Shown here in pieces: positions 117 to 8,444 of a stretch of DNA of 32,000 bases (its first letter is position 1; every line of letters starts with the position of its first letter). The notes beneath the pieces are model-generated. The model made no database searches and had not been told where the DNA came from. It saw nothing but the letters and a program-made list of their open reading frames with translations. The stretch comes from Horticoccus luteus (GTDB lineage Bacteria > Verrucomicrobiota > Verrucomicrobiia > Opitutales > Opitutaceae), in NCBI RefSeq assembly GCF_019464535.1, contig NZ_CP080507.1:3540001-3572000 (forward strand), in the 5' to 3' direction. Position numbers and translations under genes: made by a program.

Positions 117-374
117 TTATGCTGCGAACCGCAGGGTTTTACGCAGCGGGGACCAGATCAAGCGACGGAACGCCTCTGGGAAGCGAACCACCGTCTGGGA
201 CCAGTCACGGTTCTCCTGATTTTGCAGCCGTGTCTCGGCGGGCAACTCTGCAGCCGGGGGCAAATCTGCCTCTTCACGCGAGTTTTCAGGAAACTCATAC
301 GTGGCGAGCATCATCGCTCCCGAGCCGTAGCAGCCCGGATGCACGACATACATGGTCTTGGACTTTTTGTTCAT
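117..374 (-). CDS. Hypothetical small protein (85 aa), no family recognised
   Basis: ATG-initiated ORF with mostly G/C third positions, ending 14 nt before hairpin 73..102, which has a T-run in this orientation. The overlapping + ORF 105..536 translates to Cys/Arg/Pro-rich sequence that does not look like protein. Confidence 0.4.
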   Translation of the reverse strand: MNKKSKTMYVVHPGCYGSGAMMLATYEFPENSREEADLPPAAELPAETRLQNQENRDWSQTVVRFPEAFRRLIWSPLRKTLRFAA

Positions 375-599: not shown

Positions 600-1196
600 T
601 CAGGTCTGCCGCAACTTGCGCAACCCTTGGTTGATCCGATCGAGGTTGCAAACGCTCGGGTCGTAATCAGGCCCCACCCACTCCCGCCACTCGCGTCCCA
701 GCTCCGTGTCCGGCTCCGCGAGGCTCTTCAAAAGATCGTGAAACGCTTCGAGTCCGCCGCAATCCTCCGGCGGCCCAGCCCGCTCTCCCGCCGTGCACAA
801 CGGGTAACGCACGCCCTTTTCCATTTCGCCGATCTTCTCCACGACGAGATCGACCGACCAGCCTTCGCCGAAGTGATAGCAATACCGAAACCGCTCGCGC
901 TGATCCAACCCCGCCTCGCCGAGCGTGACGTCGCGGTCGTCCTCCACGAGCAAGTCGTCGCGCTTCACCGGATTGCCGAAGCGCAAGTCGTCGAATTGAA
1001 AAACGTGCGTCTGGTAGTCGAACCACTCCAGCGCGACCTGGATCGCGTCGTGCAAGCCGGAGAGCCACATGGATTCGCGCACGACGAGACGCCGCCAGAT
1101 CGATGGCTCAGTGCCGGCCACCGACAACCGCAACGTAAAGGTGCGCTCGCGCACCTTCTTCGCTTTGGCCCCGCGTCCTTCGTGAAGTCCGATCAT
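600..1196 (-). CDS. PRiA4b ORF-3-like (PF07929 / MM3350-like) domain protein
   Basis: 198 aa with ATG at 1196. The N-terminal block TFTLRLSVAGTEPSIWRRLVVRESMWLSGLHDAIQVALEWFDYQTHVFQF fits the family hallmark (P-x-IWRR ... L-x-x-LH-x-x-IQ ... W ... H-x-x-F). Confidence 0.8.
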   Translation of the reverse strand: MIGLHEGRGAKAKKVRERTFTLRLSVAGTEPSIWRRLVVRESMWLSGLHDAIQVALEWFDYQTHVFQFDDLRFGNPVKRDDLLVEDDRDVTLGEAGLDQRERFRYCYHFGEGWSVDLVVEKIGEMEKGVRYPLCTAGERAGPPEDCGGLEAFHDLLKSLAEPDTELGREWREWVGPDYDPSVCNLDRINQGLRKLRQT

Positions 1197-1393: not shown

Positions 1394-2869
1394 ATGTCCG
1401 CCGCGCCTGCCCAGTTGCCGTTCTTTCACCTCGTGAGCTTTACGGGGCATCGACAGCTTGCCGACCCGGCAGCCGTGGGCGCATTGCTCCGCCAGGAGCT
1501 GGCCGCCCTGCGTCGCGAATCGCCGGGCGAATGGATCGCCCGCTCCTCCGCCGCGGCTGGCGCCGACCTCCTGTTCGCTCGCACCGCTTTGGACCTTGGA
1601 CTCGGCTGGGAAGTCACGCTGCCGCTCCCTATCGGGGATTTTCAGCAGGATTTCGCGCCCGAGGACTGGCGCGAAGTGCGCGCCACCCTTGACCGCGCCG
1701 AACTGATCGAAGTCGTCGCCGAGCCAGGCTCGCGTGAGGAAGCGTATCTTACCGCTGGCTACGAACTCGTGCACCGCTGCGATGTGCTCCTCGCCGTGTG
1801 GGACGGCCTGCCCGCGCGCGGCAAAGGCGGCACGGGCGACATCATCGCTTATGCGCGGGCGATGGACGTGCCGCTCGTCATCATCAACCCGCTCGATCTT
1901 TCCGTCCGCCGGGAGAATTTCGCCGCGCTCCGCCTCCACGATGCGCACCTGCGTTTCCTTAACGCCGTGCCCGGTCCGGCCACGGCAGACAACGCCGATG
2001 CCCGCGAACAAATTGCCGCCTTTCAACGCAAACTCGACGACACCGCGACCCACAGCTCCCCGCATTTCCGCCGCCTGACGGCGCTCACGGTCTGGCTGCA
2101 CGTGGGCGCGACCACTCTCGCGACGGCGGCGCTCGCATTCGGCTGGCACTGGGGCGGCTTGCCCGTCGGCAAACTCCTGCTGCTCCTCGGCGCCCTCGGC
2201 GTGGCCTACTACATGCGCCGGCAAAGCACGCAAAGCCGCTGGACGCGCTGCCGCCTCGCCGCCGAAATCACCCGCTCGGCGCTCGCGATCTGGGGCCTGC
2301 CGCGCGCCACCCGGCTGTTTGCCGATTTTGACTGGGTGGGCCTCGAACCGCTGCGCCGCTCACTCGATGTGCTCCACCGCCGGGGCGCCCGCGGGCAGCC
2401 GCGCGACTTCGAGCGGTTCAAACAAGAATACCTCAGCACGCGCATCGACGACCAGCTCGCCTACTTCGCGCGGCAGAAAGCCAAGGCCGAGCCGCTGCTC
2501 GCGCGCCTGCGCTTCGGCTTCGGCGCGAGCACGATCGCGGCCATCGCGCTCACCGCACTCTACGCGCTGGATGAAGTCTTCGGCCTGGAGCTGCTCCCGC
2601 GCCCCGCCGCCGAGCTCCTTTATTATTTTGGCCCGATCGTGCTGCCCGTCGTGGCGGCCGCCTTCATTTCGCTGATTTCCATCAACGACCTGCATCGCCG
2701 CGTCGCCCGTTATCATGAGATCGGCGCGCGGCTCGTGACGGCGCGCCGCGAAATTGCTTTCAGCCAGACGTGGGCCGGCCTTGAGCGCGCGATCGCCAAG
2801 GCCGAACGCGTGCTCGTGCAAGAAGTGTTCGAGTGGCACTCGATCACCAGTTTCACCGAATCGCACTGA
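1394..2869 (+). CDS. YpsA/SLOG-like Rossmannoid domain fused to a 4-TM tandem SLATT/DUF4231-like membrane domain (491 aa)
   Basis: Start trimmed to ATG 1394; the ORF-track start at 1223 is a TTG with an Arg/Pro-rich leader. N-terminal motifs: VSFTGHR, SSAAAGADLLFA, LPLP, CDVLLAVWDG, GKGGTGD, PLVIINP. C-terminal half has two TM pairs (about aa 227-250/257-273 and 372-392/405-429), each followed by an Arg-rich helix. DDQLAYFARQKAKA precedes the second pair. Confidence 0.75.
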   Translation: MSAAPAQLPFFHLVSFTGHRQLADPAAVGALLRQELAALRRESPGEWIARSSAAAGADLLFARTALDLGLGWEVTLPLPIGDFQQDFAPEDWREVRATLDRAELIEVVAEPGSREEAYLTAGYELVHRCDVLLAVWDGLPARGKGGTGDIIAYARAMDVPLVIINPLDLSVRRENFAALRLHDAHLRFLNAVPGPATADNADAREQIAAFQRKLDDTATHSSPHFRRLTALTVWLHVGATTLATAALAFGWHWGGLPVGKLLLLLGALGVAYYMRRQSTQSRWTRCRLAAEITRSALAIWGLPRATRLFADFDWVGLEPLRRSLDVLHRRGARGQPRDFERFKQEYLSTRIDDQLAYFARQKAKAEPLLARLRFGFGASTIAAIALTALYALDEVFGLELLPRPAAELLYYFGPIVLPVVAAAFISLISINDLHRRVARYHEIGARLVTARREIAFSQTWAGLERAIAKAERVLVQEVFEWHSITSFTESH

Positions 2870-2943: not shown

Positions 2944-5061
2944 TTAAAATCGATACGTCGCCGTCGCTCCCACCTGGCGAGGATCAGCGCGATCTTCGTA
3001 ACGCGTCTCGATATAGTCCGGATCCTCGTTGCCGAAGAAAAACACGCGCTTCTCGTAACGTTCATCGAACAGATTCTTCGCCCACACCGTGAACGTCCAG
3101 TCGCGCCACACGTAACCGACACTCGCATTGACGAGATGGTAGGCGCGACGCTGCTGATCCTGGTCGTTCGAATCATACTGGCTCGCCCGTCCGAGCAGGT
3201 CGACGTCGCCAAACACCCCCCGGCTCGCGCCGTAGTGCGCGCCCACCGTGAAGCCGTAGGCCGGCGTATTCGCCAACCGCCGACCGCCGCCCGCGTTGCC
3301 GTTGCTCAACACAAACGGCTCCAGTTCCGAATCCATGAGCGCCAAGGTGCCCCGCACTGACCACATCGCCGTCATTCGATACGTCGCCGTCGCCTCCGCT
3401 CCCGTCACGTGCGCGCGTTGACCGTTGTCGGTGAAGAATCGGTAGCTGCCGCCAAACCCCGCCGAGTCCCGCACCTGCGTGGCGTGGCGGTCCAGGTAGA
3501 AGACCGTGAGTTCGCCGCGCAGGCGTTGATCAACCGAGTGCCCGCGCCAACCGGCTTCGTAATTCCACAACGTCTCCGTGCCGTAGGTCAGCGGATCCGC
3601 CGTTGGATCGATGCGCGCATCGACATTGATCCCGCCCGCCTTGTAACCGCGCGTCACCGAGGCAAACACCACCGCTCTCGGGCTCAGGTCGTGTTCGATT
3701 GTCAGTTTACCGCCGAACATGGTGACATCGAAGCGGGGGTTCAACGCGATGGGCGGTGCCGACGTGCCGGCGATTGGATCAAACTTCGTTTTTACGCCGC
3801 CGCCGCGAAGATCAATTCCTTCCACGCGCAAACCAACGATGACGCGTGTCTGCGAGGTGAAGTCGTGCGCGATCTGCCCAAAAAGCGCGGTGTTGTCCGC
3901 ACGGTAGCGGGTATCCAGGCCGCTGATCTCGTAAGCACTTGTGTCGGTGTAATGGCTCGTCTCGTCGAGCCGGGCAAAGAATGCGCCGAGCGTCCAACGG
4001 TCGATCCAGCCCAGCGCACCTTTCGCCACCGCTGAATCGAGGCGCAACTCCTGGTTGAACACGTTGCGCAGGCGGCGATCGTCACTGAAGCTTGCATACG
4101 AAGCCGAGGTCCAATCGTCGTCGTAACTGTAGATCGATCGCGTTCGCACTGCATTCGTGATCGTCGTCAACCGCACGTCCGGCCAACCCGAGAAGGTCCC
4201 GCGCACACTGCCGGCCAGCGAACGCTGCACGTCGCGGCCCGGCTGGTCGCTGTAGGTGAACCGGCCGTTGTTATCCAACGCGAACTCGTCGAAGCCATTG
4301 TTGAGATCGGCCCAGACCACCGCGGTATCCCAGCGCCAGAGAGGATTCGGATTATACGTCAGCCGCAGTCGCGCGGTGAATTCGTCCCGTGCATTGGTGT
4401 CGCGATTGAGAAACACATTATGGCGAAAGCCATCGCTCTTCGATTGCTCCACCGCCAGCCGCATCATCAACTGGTCCGGCCGGCCCGCATCCAAGGGCCC
4501 GCCGAGGGCGAAGCCGCCCGTGCGCAAATCGTCACTGCCCACACTGCCGTGCACGAAACCCGTCCAAAACGGCGTGGGCGCATGCGTGACGAGGCGGATC
4601 ACGCCGCCCGCCGCATTCGCGCCAAACGCCCCCGCCTGCGGTCCGCGCAACACTTCCACCTGCTGCACATCGAAGGTGCTCCCGATGCCGCCCAATCCGG
4701 TGAAATCGAGGTCATCGACGAGAAAACGCACGGCCGAGTCGGGCGTCTCTCCTTCGTATTGCGAATTTTCGCCGATGCCGCGGATTTGAAAATAACGCGG
4801 GCGAGACGTCCCGCCGGTCCACGTCAGATTCGGAATTTCGTTCGCCACATCGCCGAGGTGCTGCACCGCGCCGGCCCGCAAGGTCGCGTCATCGATCACC
4901 GTGACGCTCGCCGACATGCGGTCGAGCGGTGACGACCACAGATCCGCCGTTACGAGGACTGGATCCAGCATGACCGGCGGAGGCACCGTTTGCGCGCGGC
5001 CCAGCGCCGTTATCGCGGCGAGAGCGACTCCAGTGGTAAGAATTCGTATCGGGATTTGCAT
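2944..5061 (-). CDS. TonB-dependent outer-membrane receptor (riboswitch context suggests thiamine or thiamine-precursor uptake)
   Basis: 705 aa. Signal peptide MQIPIRILTTGVALAAITALGRAQT, TonB-box-like DPVLVTA, plug motifs (VEVLRGPQAGAFGANAAGGVI) and a beta-barrel ending in the typical aromatic terminus ...ATYRF. A TPP riboswitch lies in its 5' leader. Confidence 0.9.
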   Translation of the reverse strand: MQIPIRILTTGVALAAITALGRAQTVPPPVMLDPVLVTADLWSSPLDRMSASVTVIDDATLRAGAVQHLGDVANEIPNLTWTGGTSRPRYFQIRGIGENSQYEGETPDSAVRFLVDDLDFTGLGGIGSTFDVQQVEVLRGPQAGAFGANAAGGVIRLVTHAPTPFWTGFVHGSVGSDDLRTGGFALGGPLDAGRPDQLMMRLAVEQSKSDGFRHNVFLNRDTNARDEFTARLRLTYNPNPLWRWDTAVVWADLNNGFDEFALDNNGRFTYSDQPGRDVQRSLAGSVRGTFSGWPDVRLTTITNAVRTRSIYSYDDDWTSASYASFSDDRRLRNVFNQELRLDSAVAKGALGWIDRWTLGAFFARLDETSHYTDTSAYEISGLDTRYRADNTALFGQIAHDFTSQTRVIVGLRVEGIDLRGGGVKTKFDPIAGTSAPPIALNPRFDVTMFGGKLTIEHDLSPRAVVFASVTRGYKAGGINVDARIDPTADPLTYGTETLWNYEAGWRGHSVDQRLRGELTVFYLDRHATQVRDSAGFGGSYRFFTDNGQRAHVTGAEATATYRMTAMWSVRGTLALMDSELEPFVLSNGNAGGGRRLANTPAYGFTVGAHYGASRGVFGDVDLLGRASQYDSNDQDQQRRAYHLVNASVGYVWRDWTFTVWAKNLFDERYEKRVFFFGNEDPDYIETRYEDRADPRQVGATATYRF

Positions 5062-5241: not shown

Positions 5242-5324
5242 AGCCGAAACAAGCGCTCTCGTTGGATTGCGCGCAAGCCAAACCTGCGTCACCTCCCCGC
5301 CGCGCGTCCTCAGGAAACACAATA

Positions 5325-5462
5325 GCCGCTCCTTGCGAAGCGGCTATTGTGACCTAACACCAAGCAAACCGTAAAAACTACAAACATTCATCGTCCCCCA
5401 ACAAAAAAGAACGATGCTGACTACGGAAAGACAGACGCAGGCGGATTCGATTCGCTCAAAAA
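5325..5462 (-). ncRNA. Candidate sRNA, paralog 1 of a tandem ~140-nt repeat unit
   Basis: Shares a near-identical core with 5523..5664 (tgtgacctaacaccaagcaaaccgtaaRaactacaaacattcatcgt on +). On the minus strand there is a 5' hairpin (5389..5416), then a conserved unpaired stretch, then a terminator hairpin (5331..5358) followed by ttgtgttt. The true transcript ends are unknown. Confidence 0.4.
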
Positions 5463-5522: not shown

Positions 5523-5664
5523 AAACACAAAAGCCGCTTCTTGCGAAGCGGCTCGTGTGACCTAACACCAAGCAAACCGTAAGAACTACAAACATTCATC
5601 GTTCCACCAAGAACGATGCTGACTACACCAAGCTAGACGCGGAATTTTGATTTCTGCTCAAAAA
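5523..5664 (-). ncRNA. Candidate sRNA, paralog 2 of a tandem ~140-nt repeat unit
   Basis: Same architecture as 5325..5462. Minus-strand 5' hairpin catcgttc/gaacgatg (5597..5618), conserved single-stranded core, then terminator hairpin agccgcttc-gcaa-gaagcggct (5532..5553) followed by tttgtgttt. Confidence 0.4.
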
Positions 5665-5697: not shown

Positions 5698-5899
5698 AGT
5701 ATACCGTTGTTAATAAGCGATTTGCGAATATTCGTTTCTTCCTCTCGCAGCCGATTGTCTTTCTGAACGCTTTTTTTCGTGCCTTGGCCTGCGCCTGCAC
5801 TGCCGCGCTCACATTTTTCGCAGCGCCTTGACTAGACCGACCCATTCGCAGGCCGCCGTCCCCGGCGAACCACCCTGCGCCGCGTGAGGGCGTTTTCCG

Positions 5900-7105
5900 T
5901 CACCTCGCCGATGGCGCGGTCGTCGCTGGCGTTTGCTCAACCGGAGCCGTCTCGGGGGCGGCCGGCAACGGCGTGCTTTTCAACGGGTAAGTGAACCGTT
6001 TGCCCTCGTAGTTGCGGAAAACCACTTCGTCATCGGTGATTTTTTCCAGATACTCGGGGTTGATCGGCACTTTGCCTCCGCCGCCGGGTGCATCGATGAC
6101 GTATTGCGGCACGGCATAACCGGTGGTGTGACCGCGCAGCGCCGCGATGATTTCGATCCCTTTGCGGACGTCGGCCTTGAAGTGCGCGCCGCCCGTGATC
6201 AGGTCCATCTGATAGAGGTAGTAGGGCCGCACGCGCATCCGTAGCAGCCGGTGCACCAACGCCTTCATCACGTCGGCGTCGTCATTGATTCCTCGCAGCA
6301 ACACGCTCTGGTTGCCGAGCGGCACGCCGGCAAACGACAGCCGTTCGCACGCATCGCGCAACTCCGCCGTGCATTCCTTGGGATGATTGACGTGAATGCT
6401 CATCCAGATGGGGCCGTATTTCTTTAAAATCTCGCACAGCGCCGGCGTGATGCGTTGCGGCAGAAATACCGGGATGCGTGACCCGATGCGGATGAACTCC
6501 ACGTGCGGGATCGCTCGCAAACGGCTGATCAAGTGCTCCAGCTTCTTATCCGAAAGCAACAACGGATCGCCTCCCGACAGCAGCACATCGCGCACTTCCG
6601 GATGCGACTCGATATAACGCAGCCCCTGCTCGTATTCCGGATGAAAATTGTAGTCCTGCGCGTTGCTGACCAACCGGCTGCGCGTGCAATACCGGCAATA
6701 CGAAGCGCAACGGTCCGTCACCAAAAACAACACGCGGTCCGGATAACGGTGCACCAAGCCTGGCACGGGCGAATGCTCATCCTCGCCGAGCGAATCGAGC
6801 ATCTCCTCCGCCGCAATCTGCTGCTCCCCCGCGCGCGGAATCACCTGCTTGCGAATCGGACAATCCGGATCCTGACGGTCGATCAGATTGAAAAAATACG
6901 GCGTGATCGCCAACGAAAGCTTGTGGCTGGCAAACAGGCACCCGGCCTTCTCGTCCGGCGTCAACGTCATCAACTGCTCGAGCTGCTCGAGCGTGGTGAT
7001 GCGGTTTTTGAGCTGCCACGTCCAGTCGCGCCAATCCGATTCCGGAACGTGCTGCCAGAGTCCCTGGCCCTCGAACCAAGTGGAGCGGTCTTCGGTGTAA
7101 GGCAT
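5900..7105 (-). CDS. kamA: KamA-family radical SAM enzyme (lysine 2,3-aminomutase-like)
   Basis: 401 aa with the radical SAM cluster motif CASYCRYCTRSR. KamA-type blocks are present: LLSGGDPL, IRIGSR, HVNHPKE, PLGNQSVLLRGIND and YYLYQMDL. Confidence 0.8.
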   Translation of the reverse strand: MPYTEDRSTWFEGQGLWQHVPESDWRDWTWQLKNRITTLEQLEQLMTLTPDEKAGCLFASHKLSLAITPYFFNLIDRQDPDCPIRKQVIPRAGEQQIAAEEMLDSLGEDEHSPVPGLVHRYPDRVLFLVTDRCASYCRYCTRSRLVSNAQDYNFHPEYEQGLRYIESHPEVRDVLLSGGDPLLLSDKKLEHLISRLRAIPHVEFIRIGSRIPVFLPQRITPALCEILKKYGPIWMSIHVNHPKECTAELRDACERLSFAGVPLGNQSVLLRGINDDADVMKALVHRLLRMRVRPYYLYQMDLITGGAHFKADVRKGIEIIAALRGHTTGYAVPQYVIDAPGGGGKVPINPEYLEKITDDEVVFRNYEGKRFTYPLKSTPLPAAPETAPVEQTPATTAPSAR

Positions 7106-7271
7106 GGTGTGTGACGCGAACGATTAGGGTCCTAACCACTCCTGTCAAACGGTGCGCAGCGAATATCCGTCGAGCGGTGGCACCGCGAAACCGGTCTCGC
7201 GACCTTCTGCCCTGCCGCAATCCTCGCTTTCCCCTTGCGCGCGGGGCCCCGCGCCATTTCGTCAACCTGCA

Positions 7272-8444
7272 ATGCCTACGTTCCGACCCGCAATCCTCGC
7301 TTTGGAAGATGGTTCGATTTTTCGCGGCCGCGCCTTCGGGGCCGACGCCACCATCGCAGGCGAATGCGTGTTTAACACGTCCATGACCGGCTATCAGGAG
7401 ATCCTCACCGACCCCTCCTACTTCGGCCAGATCGTCACCATGACCGCCGTGCAAATCGGCAACTACGGCATCAACCCCGAAGATGCCGAAGCCGGCGCTC
7501 CCAAGTGCTCCGGCTTCGTCGTGCGCGAACTCTCTCCCATCGTCAGCAACTGGCGCAGCCAGATCTCGCTCGACGATTATCTCCGCCAATACGGCATCCC
7601 CGGCATCAGCGAAATCGACACCCGGGCGCTGACCAAAAAGCTTCGCGTCGACGGCGCCATGAAGTGCTGCCTCAGCACGCTGCCCCTCACCGACGCCGAG
7701 GCCGTTGAACGCGCCCGCGCATGGCGTGATATGAGCGGCTCCGATTACGTGAAAGACGTCACCTGCTCTGCGCCCTTCATCTGGAGCCCCACCGACCCCG
7801 CCAATTTCAACACCCCCTATCTCCCCGTCGGCACCTCGCTCAACGTGCCTCACACCCCGGCAAAAAAATTCCGCGTCGCCGCCTTCGATTACGGCGCGAA
7901 GCACAGCATCTTTCGCAAACTCGTGCAGCACGGCTTTGACGTGCAGGTTTTTCCCGCCATGGCCACGGCGGCTCAAGTCCGCGAACAAAAGCCCGACGCC
8001 CTCTTTCTCTCCAACGGCCCCGGCGATCCCGCCGCCCTCCCTTACGTGCACCAAACCGTCACGGAGTTGCTGCCCGAATATCCGACGTTCGGCATCTGCC
8101 TCGGCCACCAGATGATCACACACGCGCTCGGTGGTTCGACCTACAAACTCAAATTCGGCCACCGCGGCGGCAACCAGCCGGTCAAAAACATCGAGACCGG
8201 CCGCGTCTCCATCACCGCGCAAAATCACGGTTTCGCCACCGATCCCAAATCGATCGAAAGCCGCGGCGCCAAGGTCACCGAGATCAATCTCAACGACAAC
8301 ACCGTCGAGGGCCTGCGCCATAACACGCTTCCCGTTTTCAGCGTGCAATATCACCCCGAAGCCGCGCCCGGACCAAACGACGCCGACCCGCTGTTCGTGG
8401 ATTTCTACAAGATGGTCGAAGCCCGCAAGGCCGGCAAAATCTGA
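7272..8444 (+). CDS. carA: Carbamoyl-phosphate synthase small (glutaminase) subunit
   Basis: Start trimmed to ATG 7272 (MPTFRPAILALEDGSIFRG...). Motifs: NTSMTGYQEILTDPSY, catalytic Cys in GICLGHQ, HRGGNQPV and QYHPEA. 390 aa. Confidence 0.95.
   Translation: MPTFRPAILALEDGSIFRGRAFGADATIAGECVFNTSMTGYQEILTDPSYFGQIVTMTAVQIGNYGINPEDAEAGAPKCSGFVVRELSPIVSNWRSQISLDDYLRQYGIPGISEIDTRALTKKLRVDGAMKCCLSTLPLTDAEAVERARAWRDMSGSDYVKDVTCSAPFIWSPTDPANFNTPYLPVGTSLNVPHTPAKKFRVAAFDYGAKHSIFRKLVQHGFDVQVFPAMATAAQVREQKPDALFLSNGPGDPAALPYVHQTVTELLPEYPTFGICLGHQMITHALGGSTYKLKFGHRGGNQPVKNIETGRVSITAQNHGFATDPKSIESRGAKVTEINLNDNTVEGLRHNTLPVFSVQYHPEAAPGPNDADPLFVDFYKMVEARKAGKI

Follow-up and report, generated by a model that had tools for sequence, protein, structure and literature searches.

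What does a lone gene for a predicted nucleotide sensor fused to membrane helices do among housekeeping genes? The question is raised by positions 1394 to 2869, forward strand, of a 32,000-nucleotide (nt) stretch of the Horticoccus luteus genome (NCBI RefSeq GCF_019464535.1, contig NZ_CP080507.1, positions 3,540,001 to 3,572,000), hereafter the window. An earlier note, made from the sequence alone, had read the 491-amino-acid (aa) product as an orphan SLOG-like sensor joined to two SLATT-like membrane modules, a candidate one-gene, nucleotide-triggered effector. We confirmed the observation itself, and the first interpretation was partly supported. In our reading the gene is probably the sensor-effector of a Thoeris-like TIR signaling system that has lost its linked TIR genes.

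Coding sequence and domain architecture

The window gene encodes a real, conserved protein of 491 aa. Open reading frame (ORF) analysis showed the frame to be open already from position 1223, with an ATG at 1394 and the stop codon at 2867-2869; the start at 1394 is favored because homologs of 490 to 495 aa begin at the same point in the alignment. The gene is monocistronic, flanked by a divergent gene upstream and a convergent gene downstream, and the GC content at its third codon positions is 0.80. The database holds 908 homologs, the best 120 of which are all full length, 56 to 91% identical and from Opitutaceae (Lacunisphaera, Oleiharenicola and Opitutus). Compared with the 91%-identical ortholog in relative L003, the ratio of nonsynonymous to synonymous substitution rates (dN/dS) was 0.077 at a dS of 0.72, with low values for the N-terminal and membrane parts alike (0.10 and 0.05, respectively). 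A chance ORF or a pseudogene is ruled out by the number of homologs together with this dN/dS. All eight motifs quoted in the earlier note were found in the protein: VSFTGHR (aa 14-20), SSAAAGADLLFA (aa 51-62), LPLP (aa 76-79), CDVLLAVWDG (aa 129-138), GKGGTGD (aa 143-149), RRQSTQSRWTRCRLAAEITRSAL (aa 275-297), DDQLAYFARQKAKA (aa 352-365) and NDLHRRVARYHEIGARLVTARRE (aa 431-453).

We predicted the structure of the protein with AlphaFold2 and compared the models with the PDB using Foldseek. The full-length model (predicted local distance difference test [pLDDT] of 82, predicted TM-score [pTM] of 0.72) has a seven-stranded alpha/beta domain at aa 11-175 (nt 1424-1918, forward strand), followed by long helices. 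A model of the domain only, with 41 diverse relatives as input, reached a pLDDT of 95 and a pTM of 0.90. Its top matches were all SLOG proteins, and the full-length model ranked them alike. The best was Bacillus subtilis YpsA (2nx2; E value of 2.6e-7, TM-scores of 0.65 and 0.72, all 178 target residues aligned), followed in order by ShosA, DprA from two species, the Bacillus cereus ThsA SLOG domain with 3'cADPR (3' cyclic ADP-ribose; E value of 5.5e-4), TM1055, several LOGs and the ADPR-binding N-terminal domain of TRPM2 (entries after 2nx2: 8zva, 5mll, 3uqz, 7uxs, 1rcu and 5wq3). Weak matches extended to the SLOG-like domains of TRPM2, TRPM4 and TRPM8. The superposition of the predicted fold on YpsA, DprA, LOG and the ThsA SLOG domain bears out the proposal of an N-terminal SLOG/YpsA-like Rossmannoid domain, and we describe it as a predicted nucleotide-ligand sensor.

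Sequence models recognized this domain faintly. The Pfam YpsA, LOG and LD-cluster models gave no match to the window protein, and the sole SLOG-clan model to match was YAcAr, a YpsA-related SLOG family, at 16.6 bits versus a gathering score of 28.2 (E value of 0.007). Among the 41 relatives, sub-threshold matches were found to YAcAr (9/41), cpYpsA (5/41) and nucleoside 2-deoxyribosyltransferase (14/41). Conservation was clearer: across 150 relatives at 22 to 62% identity, G18, H19, R20, A54, G56, D58, L76, P77, D86, F87, Y118, G122, W136, G143, G145, G146 and T147 are each conserved in at least 90%. These positions fall in part within the SLOG loops FTGHR (aa 16-20), SxAxGxD (aa 52-58) and GxGGT (aa 143-147), and S52-A54-G56-D58 and G143-G145-G146-T147 are invariant or nearly so (alignments A1, A2 and A4). 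In the SLOG superfamily, the two glycine-rich loops, one after strand 2 and a GGxGT-like one after strand 5, line the ligand pocket. The assignment of the predicted domain to SLOG is based on the modeled fold, the conserved loops and the sub-threshold family matches.

The same residues could be those of an enzyme, such as an N-glycosidase or hydrolase that acts on a nucleotide or a TIR signal and is anchored by the SLATT part, making or degrading the signal. Some SLOG clades, LOG for example, are N-glycosidases; the polar residues H19, R20, D58 and D86 are invariant, and the nucleoside 2-deoxyribosyltransferase matches point the same way. However, the nearest folds (YpsA, DprA, ShosA and the ThsA SLOG domain) are binding domains for which no catalysis has been demonstrated in such contexts, and fusion to a pore-type effector domain suits sensor-effector logic better. 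We consider a catalytic SLOG domain improbable.

The rest of the protein contains four hydrophobic helices arranged as two pairs, as had been noted and as we saw in both the hydropathy profile and the AlphaFold2 model (helices 223-248, 255-276, 339-396 and 403-430). The first two-transmembrane (2-TM) module spans aa 213-294 (nt 2030-2275, forward strand), with TM1 at about aa 226-248 (nt 2069-2137) and TM2 at about aa 255-275 (nt 2156-2218). After TM2 comes a juxtamembrane helix that is basic and conserved (W283, R287, E291 and R294). The second module spans aa 346-481 (nt 2429-2836, forward strand), with TM3 at about aa 372-396 (nt 2507-2581) and TM4 at about aa 406-430 (nt 2609-2683); a long helix ahead of the TM pair (DDQLAYF...) and cytoplasmic helices at the C terminus complete the module. 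TM2 to TM4 exceed the hydropathy threshold of 1.5, and TM1 stays under it. The loops within the hairpins are short and nearly uncharged, and the 96-residue segment between the hairpins holds 20 lysines and arginines. Hydropathy and charge distribution fit a topology with both termini inside, which would place the SLOG domain in the cytoplasm.

The two modules match different SLATT families. The second matched Pfam SLATT_1 (PF18181) above threshold (28.3 bits versus a gathering score of 26.3; aa 346-481, profile positions 1-122 of 122), and its score with the NCBIfam SLATT_1 model was below cutoff (23.2 versus 41). The first is SLATT_3-like: Pfam SLATT_3 (PF18184) matched aa 213-294 just under threshold (22.2 bits versus 26.3, E value of 1.8e-4, profile positions 6-86 of 155), NCBIfam SLATT_3 gave an E value of 9.6e-7, below its cutoff, and many orthologs carry a precomputed PF18184 match. 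DUF4231 (PF14015) was not significant in the window protein (13.1 bits versus 24.7, E value of 0.14). The SLATT half of the earlier SLATT/DUF4231 assignment thus holds, with SLATT_1 above the Pfam threshold and SLATT_3 near it, but the DUF4231 signature does not.

The earlier note had also described the modules as duplicated in tandem. Comparison of module 1 with module 2 by hhalign gave no detectable similarity (probability of 3%), so we dropped a tandem duplication; judged by their profiles, the modules are two different SLATT-family units and not a recent duplication. SLOG-plus-SLATT effectors were reportedly predicted by Burroughs et al. in 2015. The Pfam name of SLATT, "SMODS and SLOG-associating 2TM effector domain," itself records the association with SLOG.

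Nor is the layout unusual, as had been suggested. A search with the N-terminal domain returned 5,410 clusters (50% identity) at an E value of at most 1e-3 and 2,085 at an E value of at most 1e-10. Among the best 149 clusters, 82 had representatives longer than 400 aa, mostly 460 to 540 aa. When these 82 and the window protein were scanned, SLATT_1 was found in 66/83, SLATT_3 in 28/83 and DUF4231 in 20/83. From these profile matches, a SLOG domain followed by four TM helices is the standard architecture of a large, widespread family.

Some members depart from this form. A stand-alone SLOG-like version of about 179 aa also exists: in a Verrucomicrobiota metagenome-assembled genome (L092/L093, positions 6001-6540), a 179-aa domain lies among genes for a TPR-S/MAP3K_TRAF_bd-cyclase, a DUF4190 protein, a CHAT-TPR protease and a CHASE2-cyclase, a different nucleotide-signaling context for the same domain. 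In two other relatives, the gene reads as two ORFs: L094 (positions 6001-7481; 335 and 158 aa), a TIR-less locus, and L095 (positions 6001-7593; 278 and 171 aa), a long-read assembly in which the adjoining TIR-TPR genes are broken up as well. Decay would account for these split genes, as would frameshifts from assembly. A scan of viral contigs found no relative.

TIR genes beside relatives and the neighborhood of the window gene

We scanned GTDB species-representative genomes with a profile built from alignment A1. This gave 209 relatives, from which 80 loci were kept, all from Verrucomicrobiota and mostly labeled Opitutaceae, a narrow range that follows from the use of A1. In five long-contig loci looked up, TIR genes adjoined the SLOG-SLATT ortholog in all five. 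We built a TIR profile from nine neighbor proteins, which score 63 to 78 bits with Pfam TIR_2 against a gathering score of 28, and it detected TIR ORFs in 60 of the 80 GTDB loci; Pfam added a divergent TIR in L090, for a total of at least 61/80. Applied to the family, "one-gene system" is not supported: in no fewer than 60 of 80 species loci, the ortholog is physically paired with TIR genes. The term "orphan" stands for the window copy, which has no TIR partner in the window, but not for the family, as TIR genes adjoin most Opitutaceae orthologs.

TIR-linked loci carry one to four TIR genes. The usual neighbors are TIR-TPR proteins of 620 to 1,160 aa with an N-terminal TIR domain, a SIR2_2-TIR_2 fusion (about 460 aa) and nSTAND1 NTPases (about 1,100 aa). 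The neighbor TIR domains keep a glutamate at the expected catalytic position (RREW, RLEW or RIEW). When we clustered the neighbors in 85 loci (the window, four of the earlier look-up loci and the 80 GTDB loci), the result included TIR proteins (61 loci), nSTAND1-type proteins (32), TonB-dependent receptors (31), PRiA4_ORF3 proteins (25) and lysine 2,3-aminomutases (14). Distant relatives also lie beside TIR genes, both in L095 (47% identical in the domain) and in L096-98 (about 42% in the domain), where a patatin, a TPR protein and an integrase also occur. In a neighbor-joining tree, TIR-linked loci occur in all major clades, and by this distribution the linkage appears ancestral.

Proximity to TIR genes may reflect co-location in a defense island, with the SLOG-SLATT protein acting as an independent effector or toxin under another trigger (of the type used by CBASS, antiphage signaling based on cyclic oligonucleotides, or another nucleotide) beside autonomous, NAD-depleting TIR-TPR and SIR2-TIR/nSTAND1 systems. 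TIR copy number does vary, from zero to four overall; SIR2-TIR with nSTAND1 resembles a self-contained sensor-effector pair; and the window copy, judged by its dN/dS, would be functional without TIR genes. Against this, the pairing is tight and divergent: the TIR domain starts less than 500 nt from the SLOG-SLATT start codon in 34 loci, always on the opposite strand, and less than 1.5 kilobases (kb) away in 50. The pairing also holds across 50 to 72% identity and in distant relatives, and no SMODS or cyclase partner was found in any locus for which we had tabulated the called genes and their Pfam matches, the other GTDB loci having been searched only for TIR and recurrent neighbor clusters. 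The CBASS hallmark of a CD-NTase/SMODS cyclase beside the effector was absent from the window and from the annotated ortholog loci. We regard simple co-location as improbable.

A recurrent cassette consists of the SIR2_2-TIR_2 fusion (about 455 to 472 aa) and one or two nSTAND1 NTPases (about 1,080 to 1,290 aa, one with a beta-propeller). It occurs at L002 2823-7441, L005 11684-20245, L009 4078-8705 and L017 2931-7522, and it resembles a separate sensor-effector pair within the same locus.

One such locus shows how the window may have come to lack TIR genes. Mapped by blastn and ORFs, L017, whose SLOG-SLATT ortholog is 72% identical, has the gene order of the window: a small ORF, PRiA4_ORF3, the SLOG-SLATT gene and, farther downstream, the TonB receptor. 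In L017, an additional 8.7 kb or so separates PRiA4_ORF3 from the SLOG-SLATT gene and holds a 488-aa ORF, an nSTAND-type gene of 1,136 aa, a SIR2-TIR gene and a TIR-TPR gene; the window has a 197-nt intergenic region (1197-1393) in this place. In a neighbor-joining tree, a TIR-linked clade encloses the window and L003. Because the window keeps the L017 order without the cassette and nests in this clade, the simplest reading of the sequences is that the window's lineage lost the cassette secondarily. Such a loss appears common to the window and L003, where no adjacent TIR gene was seen on contigs that stop about 100 nt past the end of the PRiA4_ORF3 gene. By its substitution pattern, the SLOG-SLATT gene has since been kept by purifying selection. 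The 488-aa ORF (L017 1359-2825, reverse strand) lies between PRiA4_ORF3 and the nSTAND gene, within the cassette that the window lacks, and has no Pfam match.

TIR genes were absent from 19 of the 80 GTDB loci. In six of these (L019, L034, L036, L039, L066 and L084), we scanned the immediate upstream ORF and found housekeeping or non-TIR neighbors. In L019, the upstream divergent gene (5723-7552, reverse strand) codes for a TPR-S (Tetratricopeptide Repeats-Sensor, PF20308) protein that lacks a TIR domain.

Housekeeping genes make up the remainder of the window: a TonB receptor, lysine 2,3-aminomutase, carA, a glycosidase, a CMP-sugar cytidylyltransferase, TatD, TonB, an M32 peptidase, SPFH proteins and HrpA. 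Upstream of the intergenic region lies a PRiA4_ORF3-family gene (198 aa; 600-1196, reverse strand; PF07929, E value of 7e-48), followed on the same strand by a small conserved ORF of 85 aa with no family match (117-374, reverse strand; L017 homolog at an E value of 2e-32) and a strong intrinsic terminator (103-72, reverse strand; 14 pairs and a T run). The 85-aa ORF and PRiA4_ORF3 probably form a two-gene unit. PRiA4_ORF3 homologs occur in 26 of the 80 GTDB loci, whether TIR genes are there or not; they are mostly convergent and downstream, and upstream and divergent in the window, L003, L012 and L017. This recurrence may reflect either function or synteny.

Convergent with the SLOG-SLATT gene is a TonB-dependent receptor gene (2944-5061, reverse strand; Pfam Plug), a housekeeping neighbor syntenic with L002, L009 and L017. 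A thiamine pyrophosphate (TPP) riboswitch precedes it (5244-5131, reverse strand; Rfam RF00059, 60.7 bits over the full-length model), which suggests a thiamine-regulated outer membrane transporter. Within the long stretch between the riboswitch and the lysine 2,3-aminomutase gene, an intergenic element of about 125 nt is repeated in tandem at 5315-5438 and 5523-5640 (spacing of 208 nt; two blocks, 93% and 84% identical). Both copies contain a GC-rich hairpin, and the element also matches twice in L003.

Such surroundings raise a broader alternative, a lineage-conserved housekeeping or stress membrane protein. Its SLOG domain would sense an endogenous NAD-derived or other nucleotide and regulate ion flux or membrane state, much as in TRPM2, and TIR arrays exploiting it would have been added later. 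Much of the locus is consistent with this: the syntenic position is kept across Opitutaceae clades at 50 to 72% identity, the 209 relatives come from species-representative genomes, the 19 TIR-less loci include six with housekeeping or non-TIR neighbors, the window holds only housekeeping genes besides, and the gene is kept at its low dN/dS without a visible adjacent TIR gene. The Foldseek matches to the TRPM2, TRPM4 and TRPM8 SLOG-like domains agree as well. On the other side, every major clade includes TIR-linked loci and the linkage appears ancestral, SLATT domains elsewhere are known from conflict systems, distant relatives occupy island-like contexts with TIR, patatin and integrase genes, and the gene reads as two ORFs in two relatives, through decay or assembly error. 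We consider a housekeeping role unlikely, though it merits more weight than an enzymatic SLOG domain or mere co-location.

Proposed signaling and the points against it

In the Thoeris-like reading that we favor, the effector would combine a signal-binding domain (the SLOG fold) and a cell-killing domain (SLATT) on one chain. Adjoining TIR-TPR proteins in the relatives would detect infection through their TPR parts and turn NAD+ into a signal derived from ADP-ribose (ADPR). The cytoplasmic SLOG domain would bind this signal through its SxAxGxD and GxGGT loops, and the linker and juxtamembrane helices would relay binding to both SLATT hairpins. The hairpins would then oligomerize or open and breach the inner membrane, stopping the infected cell. 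For the ligand, the gating, the toxicity and the role in defense, this scheme draws by analogy on the ThsA SLOG domain, on type VII Thoeris and on SLATT effectors generally.

The window copy would need its signal from elsewhere. Because the linked TIR/STAND cassette appears to have been lost yet the gene is under strong purifying selection, TIR enzymes from genes at other sites in the genome probably activate the window protein in trans. A trigger supplied in trans, as first proposed, is viable.

Several observations weigh against a Thoeris-like role. No signal-making gene was found in the window: a TIR hidden Markov model run on all six-frame ORFs and Pfam scans of 25 candidate ORFs (18 with a family match) revealed no TIR, SMODS or cyclase gene in the 32 kb, of which only 1.4 kb lies upstream of the gene. 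The earlier note had rightly stated that the window lacks a signal-producing enzyme. The N-terminal 200 or so residues had no Pfam, NCBIfam or PADLOC match at threshold, no PADLOC model matched the window protein as a whole, and a profile of 41 diverse N-terminal domains found no significant match among PDB sequences. The locus is also syntenic and apparently vertical across Opitutaceae, beside the thiamine-regulated TonB receptor, lysine 2,3-aminomutase and carA, which is atypical of sporadic defense systems. The adjoining TIR-TPR and SIR2-TIR/nSTAND1 genes could be self-contained NADase systems merely sharing an island. Finally, in the preprint by Yirmiya et al. 2025 (bioRxiv 10.64898/2025.12.03.692087, Tables S1/S2), both "SLOG and 4TM" systems tested in E. 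coli, from Streptomyces sp. GKU 895 and Ca. Nitrospira nitrosa, gave no defense.

A bolder possibility joins the two sides. The locus may be a syntenic immune hub throughout Opitutaceae, in which one SLOG-4TM receptor-effector serves interchangeable TIR-TPR arrays and SIR2-TIR/STAND modules; in the window's lineage, the lone receptor would be either wired in trans or a TIR-independent sensor of an NAD-derived nucleotide. We hold this as a speculative, minority view. If TIR-independent sensing were true, the protein would be a bacterial counterpart of the ADPR-gated TRPM2.

Comparison with Thoeris effectors and other SLOG proteins

Yirmiya et al. 2025 list "SLOG and 4TM" among 29 putative Thoeris effector types. 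By the description given there, the window protein matches this class: it is alike in having a SLOG domain and four TM helices, in being encoded next to TIR genes in its relatives and in its predicted response to a TIR-made signal. It differs in that the TIRs of the listed systems are only distantly similar to the Opitutaceae TIR-TPR domains and in that the window copy has no linked TIR. The Opitutaceae TIR peptide motifs were absent from the examined part of Table S1, and the contig with the best relative of the Ca. Nitrospira nitrosa TIR of that table (L091) carried no SLOG-4TM effector.

Among validated or named systems, types III and VII Thoeris are the nearest. Type III Thoeris (van den Berg et al. 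2024, via bioRxiv 10.64898/2025.12.03.692087) combines several TIR genes with ThsD, an effector that has a SLOG domain; as described there, many TIRs served by one SLOG effector recall the one to four tandem TIR-TPR genes of the relatives. Type VII Thoeris is given in the preprint as a validated pair of TIR and SLATT with cyclic ADP-ribose (cADPR) as the signal. Its effector ThsH is, like the window protein, a SLATT membrane effector paired with a TIR producer and is predicted to form oligomeric assemblies that breach the membrane. ThsH is, however, annotated there with SLATT only, whereas the window protein adds an N-terminal SLOG domain and has two different SLATT modules per chain. ThsA of type I Thoeris (SIR2-SLOG, binding 3'cADPR; PDB structures 7uxs and 6lhx) likewise fuses a SLOG-fold sensor to a toxic effector and was matched by Foldseek at an E value of 5.5e-4. 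In ThsA, that effector is a SIR2 NADase and not a membrane module, and the window SLOG domain is nearer to YpsA (TM-scores of 0.65 to 0.72) than to ThsA (0.41).

Two proteins outside Thoeris are instructive. B. subtilis YpsA (2nx2, of the "YpsA proper" clade) is the best structural match over the whole YpsA chain (178 columns), but the identity is 16% and there is no match to Pfam YpsA (DUF1273); YpsA itself is soluble and related to cell division, with no TM part. TRPM2, a cation channel gated by ADP-ribose through its SLOG-like MHR1/2 region, similarly joins a nucleotide-binding domain and a membrane-permeability module on one chain, and its Foldseek matches were weak. Its membrane part is unrelated, a six-TM tetrameric channel as opposed to SLATT in a two-by-two TM arrangement, so the likeness is one of analogy, not homology.

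To these systems our analysis adds a SLOG domain missed by current models, a locus that is syntenic family-wide with variable TIR arrays, and a window copy that is a selectively maintained orphan. For annotation, a family with thousands of clusters can have its N-terminal domain named SLOG where Pfam, NCBIfam and PADLOC models miss it. The "SLOG and 4TM" class still lacks a validated example or a known ligand. The Opitutaceae set offers a well-sampled natural series for it: 80 species loci with zero to four TIR-TPR partners and a clean loss of the cassette with the effector kept. Such a series could help to find out which TIR product is the cognate one, to test whether several TIR sensors feed into a single membrane effector and to show whether effectors of this kind act in trans or have non-immune roles.

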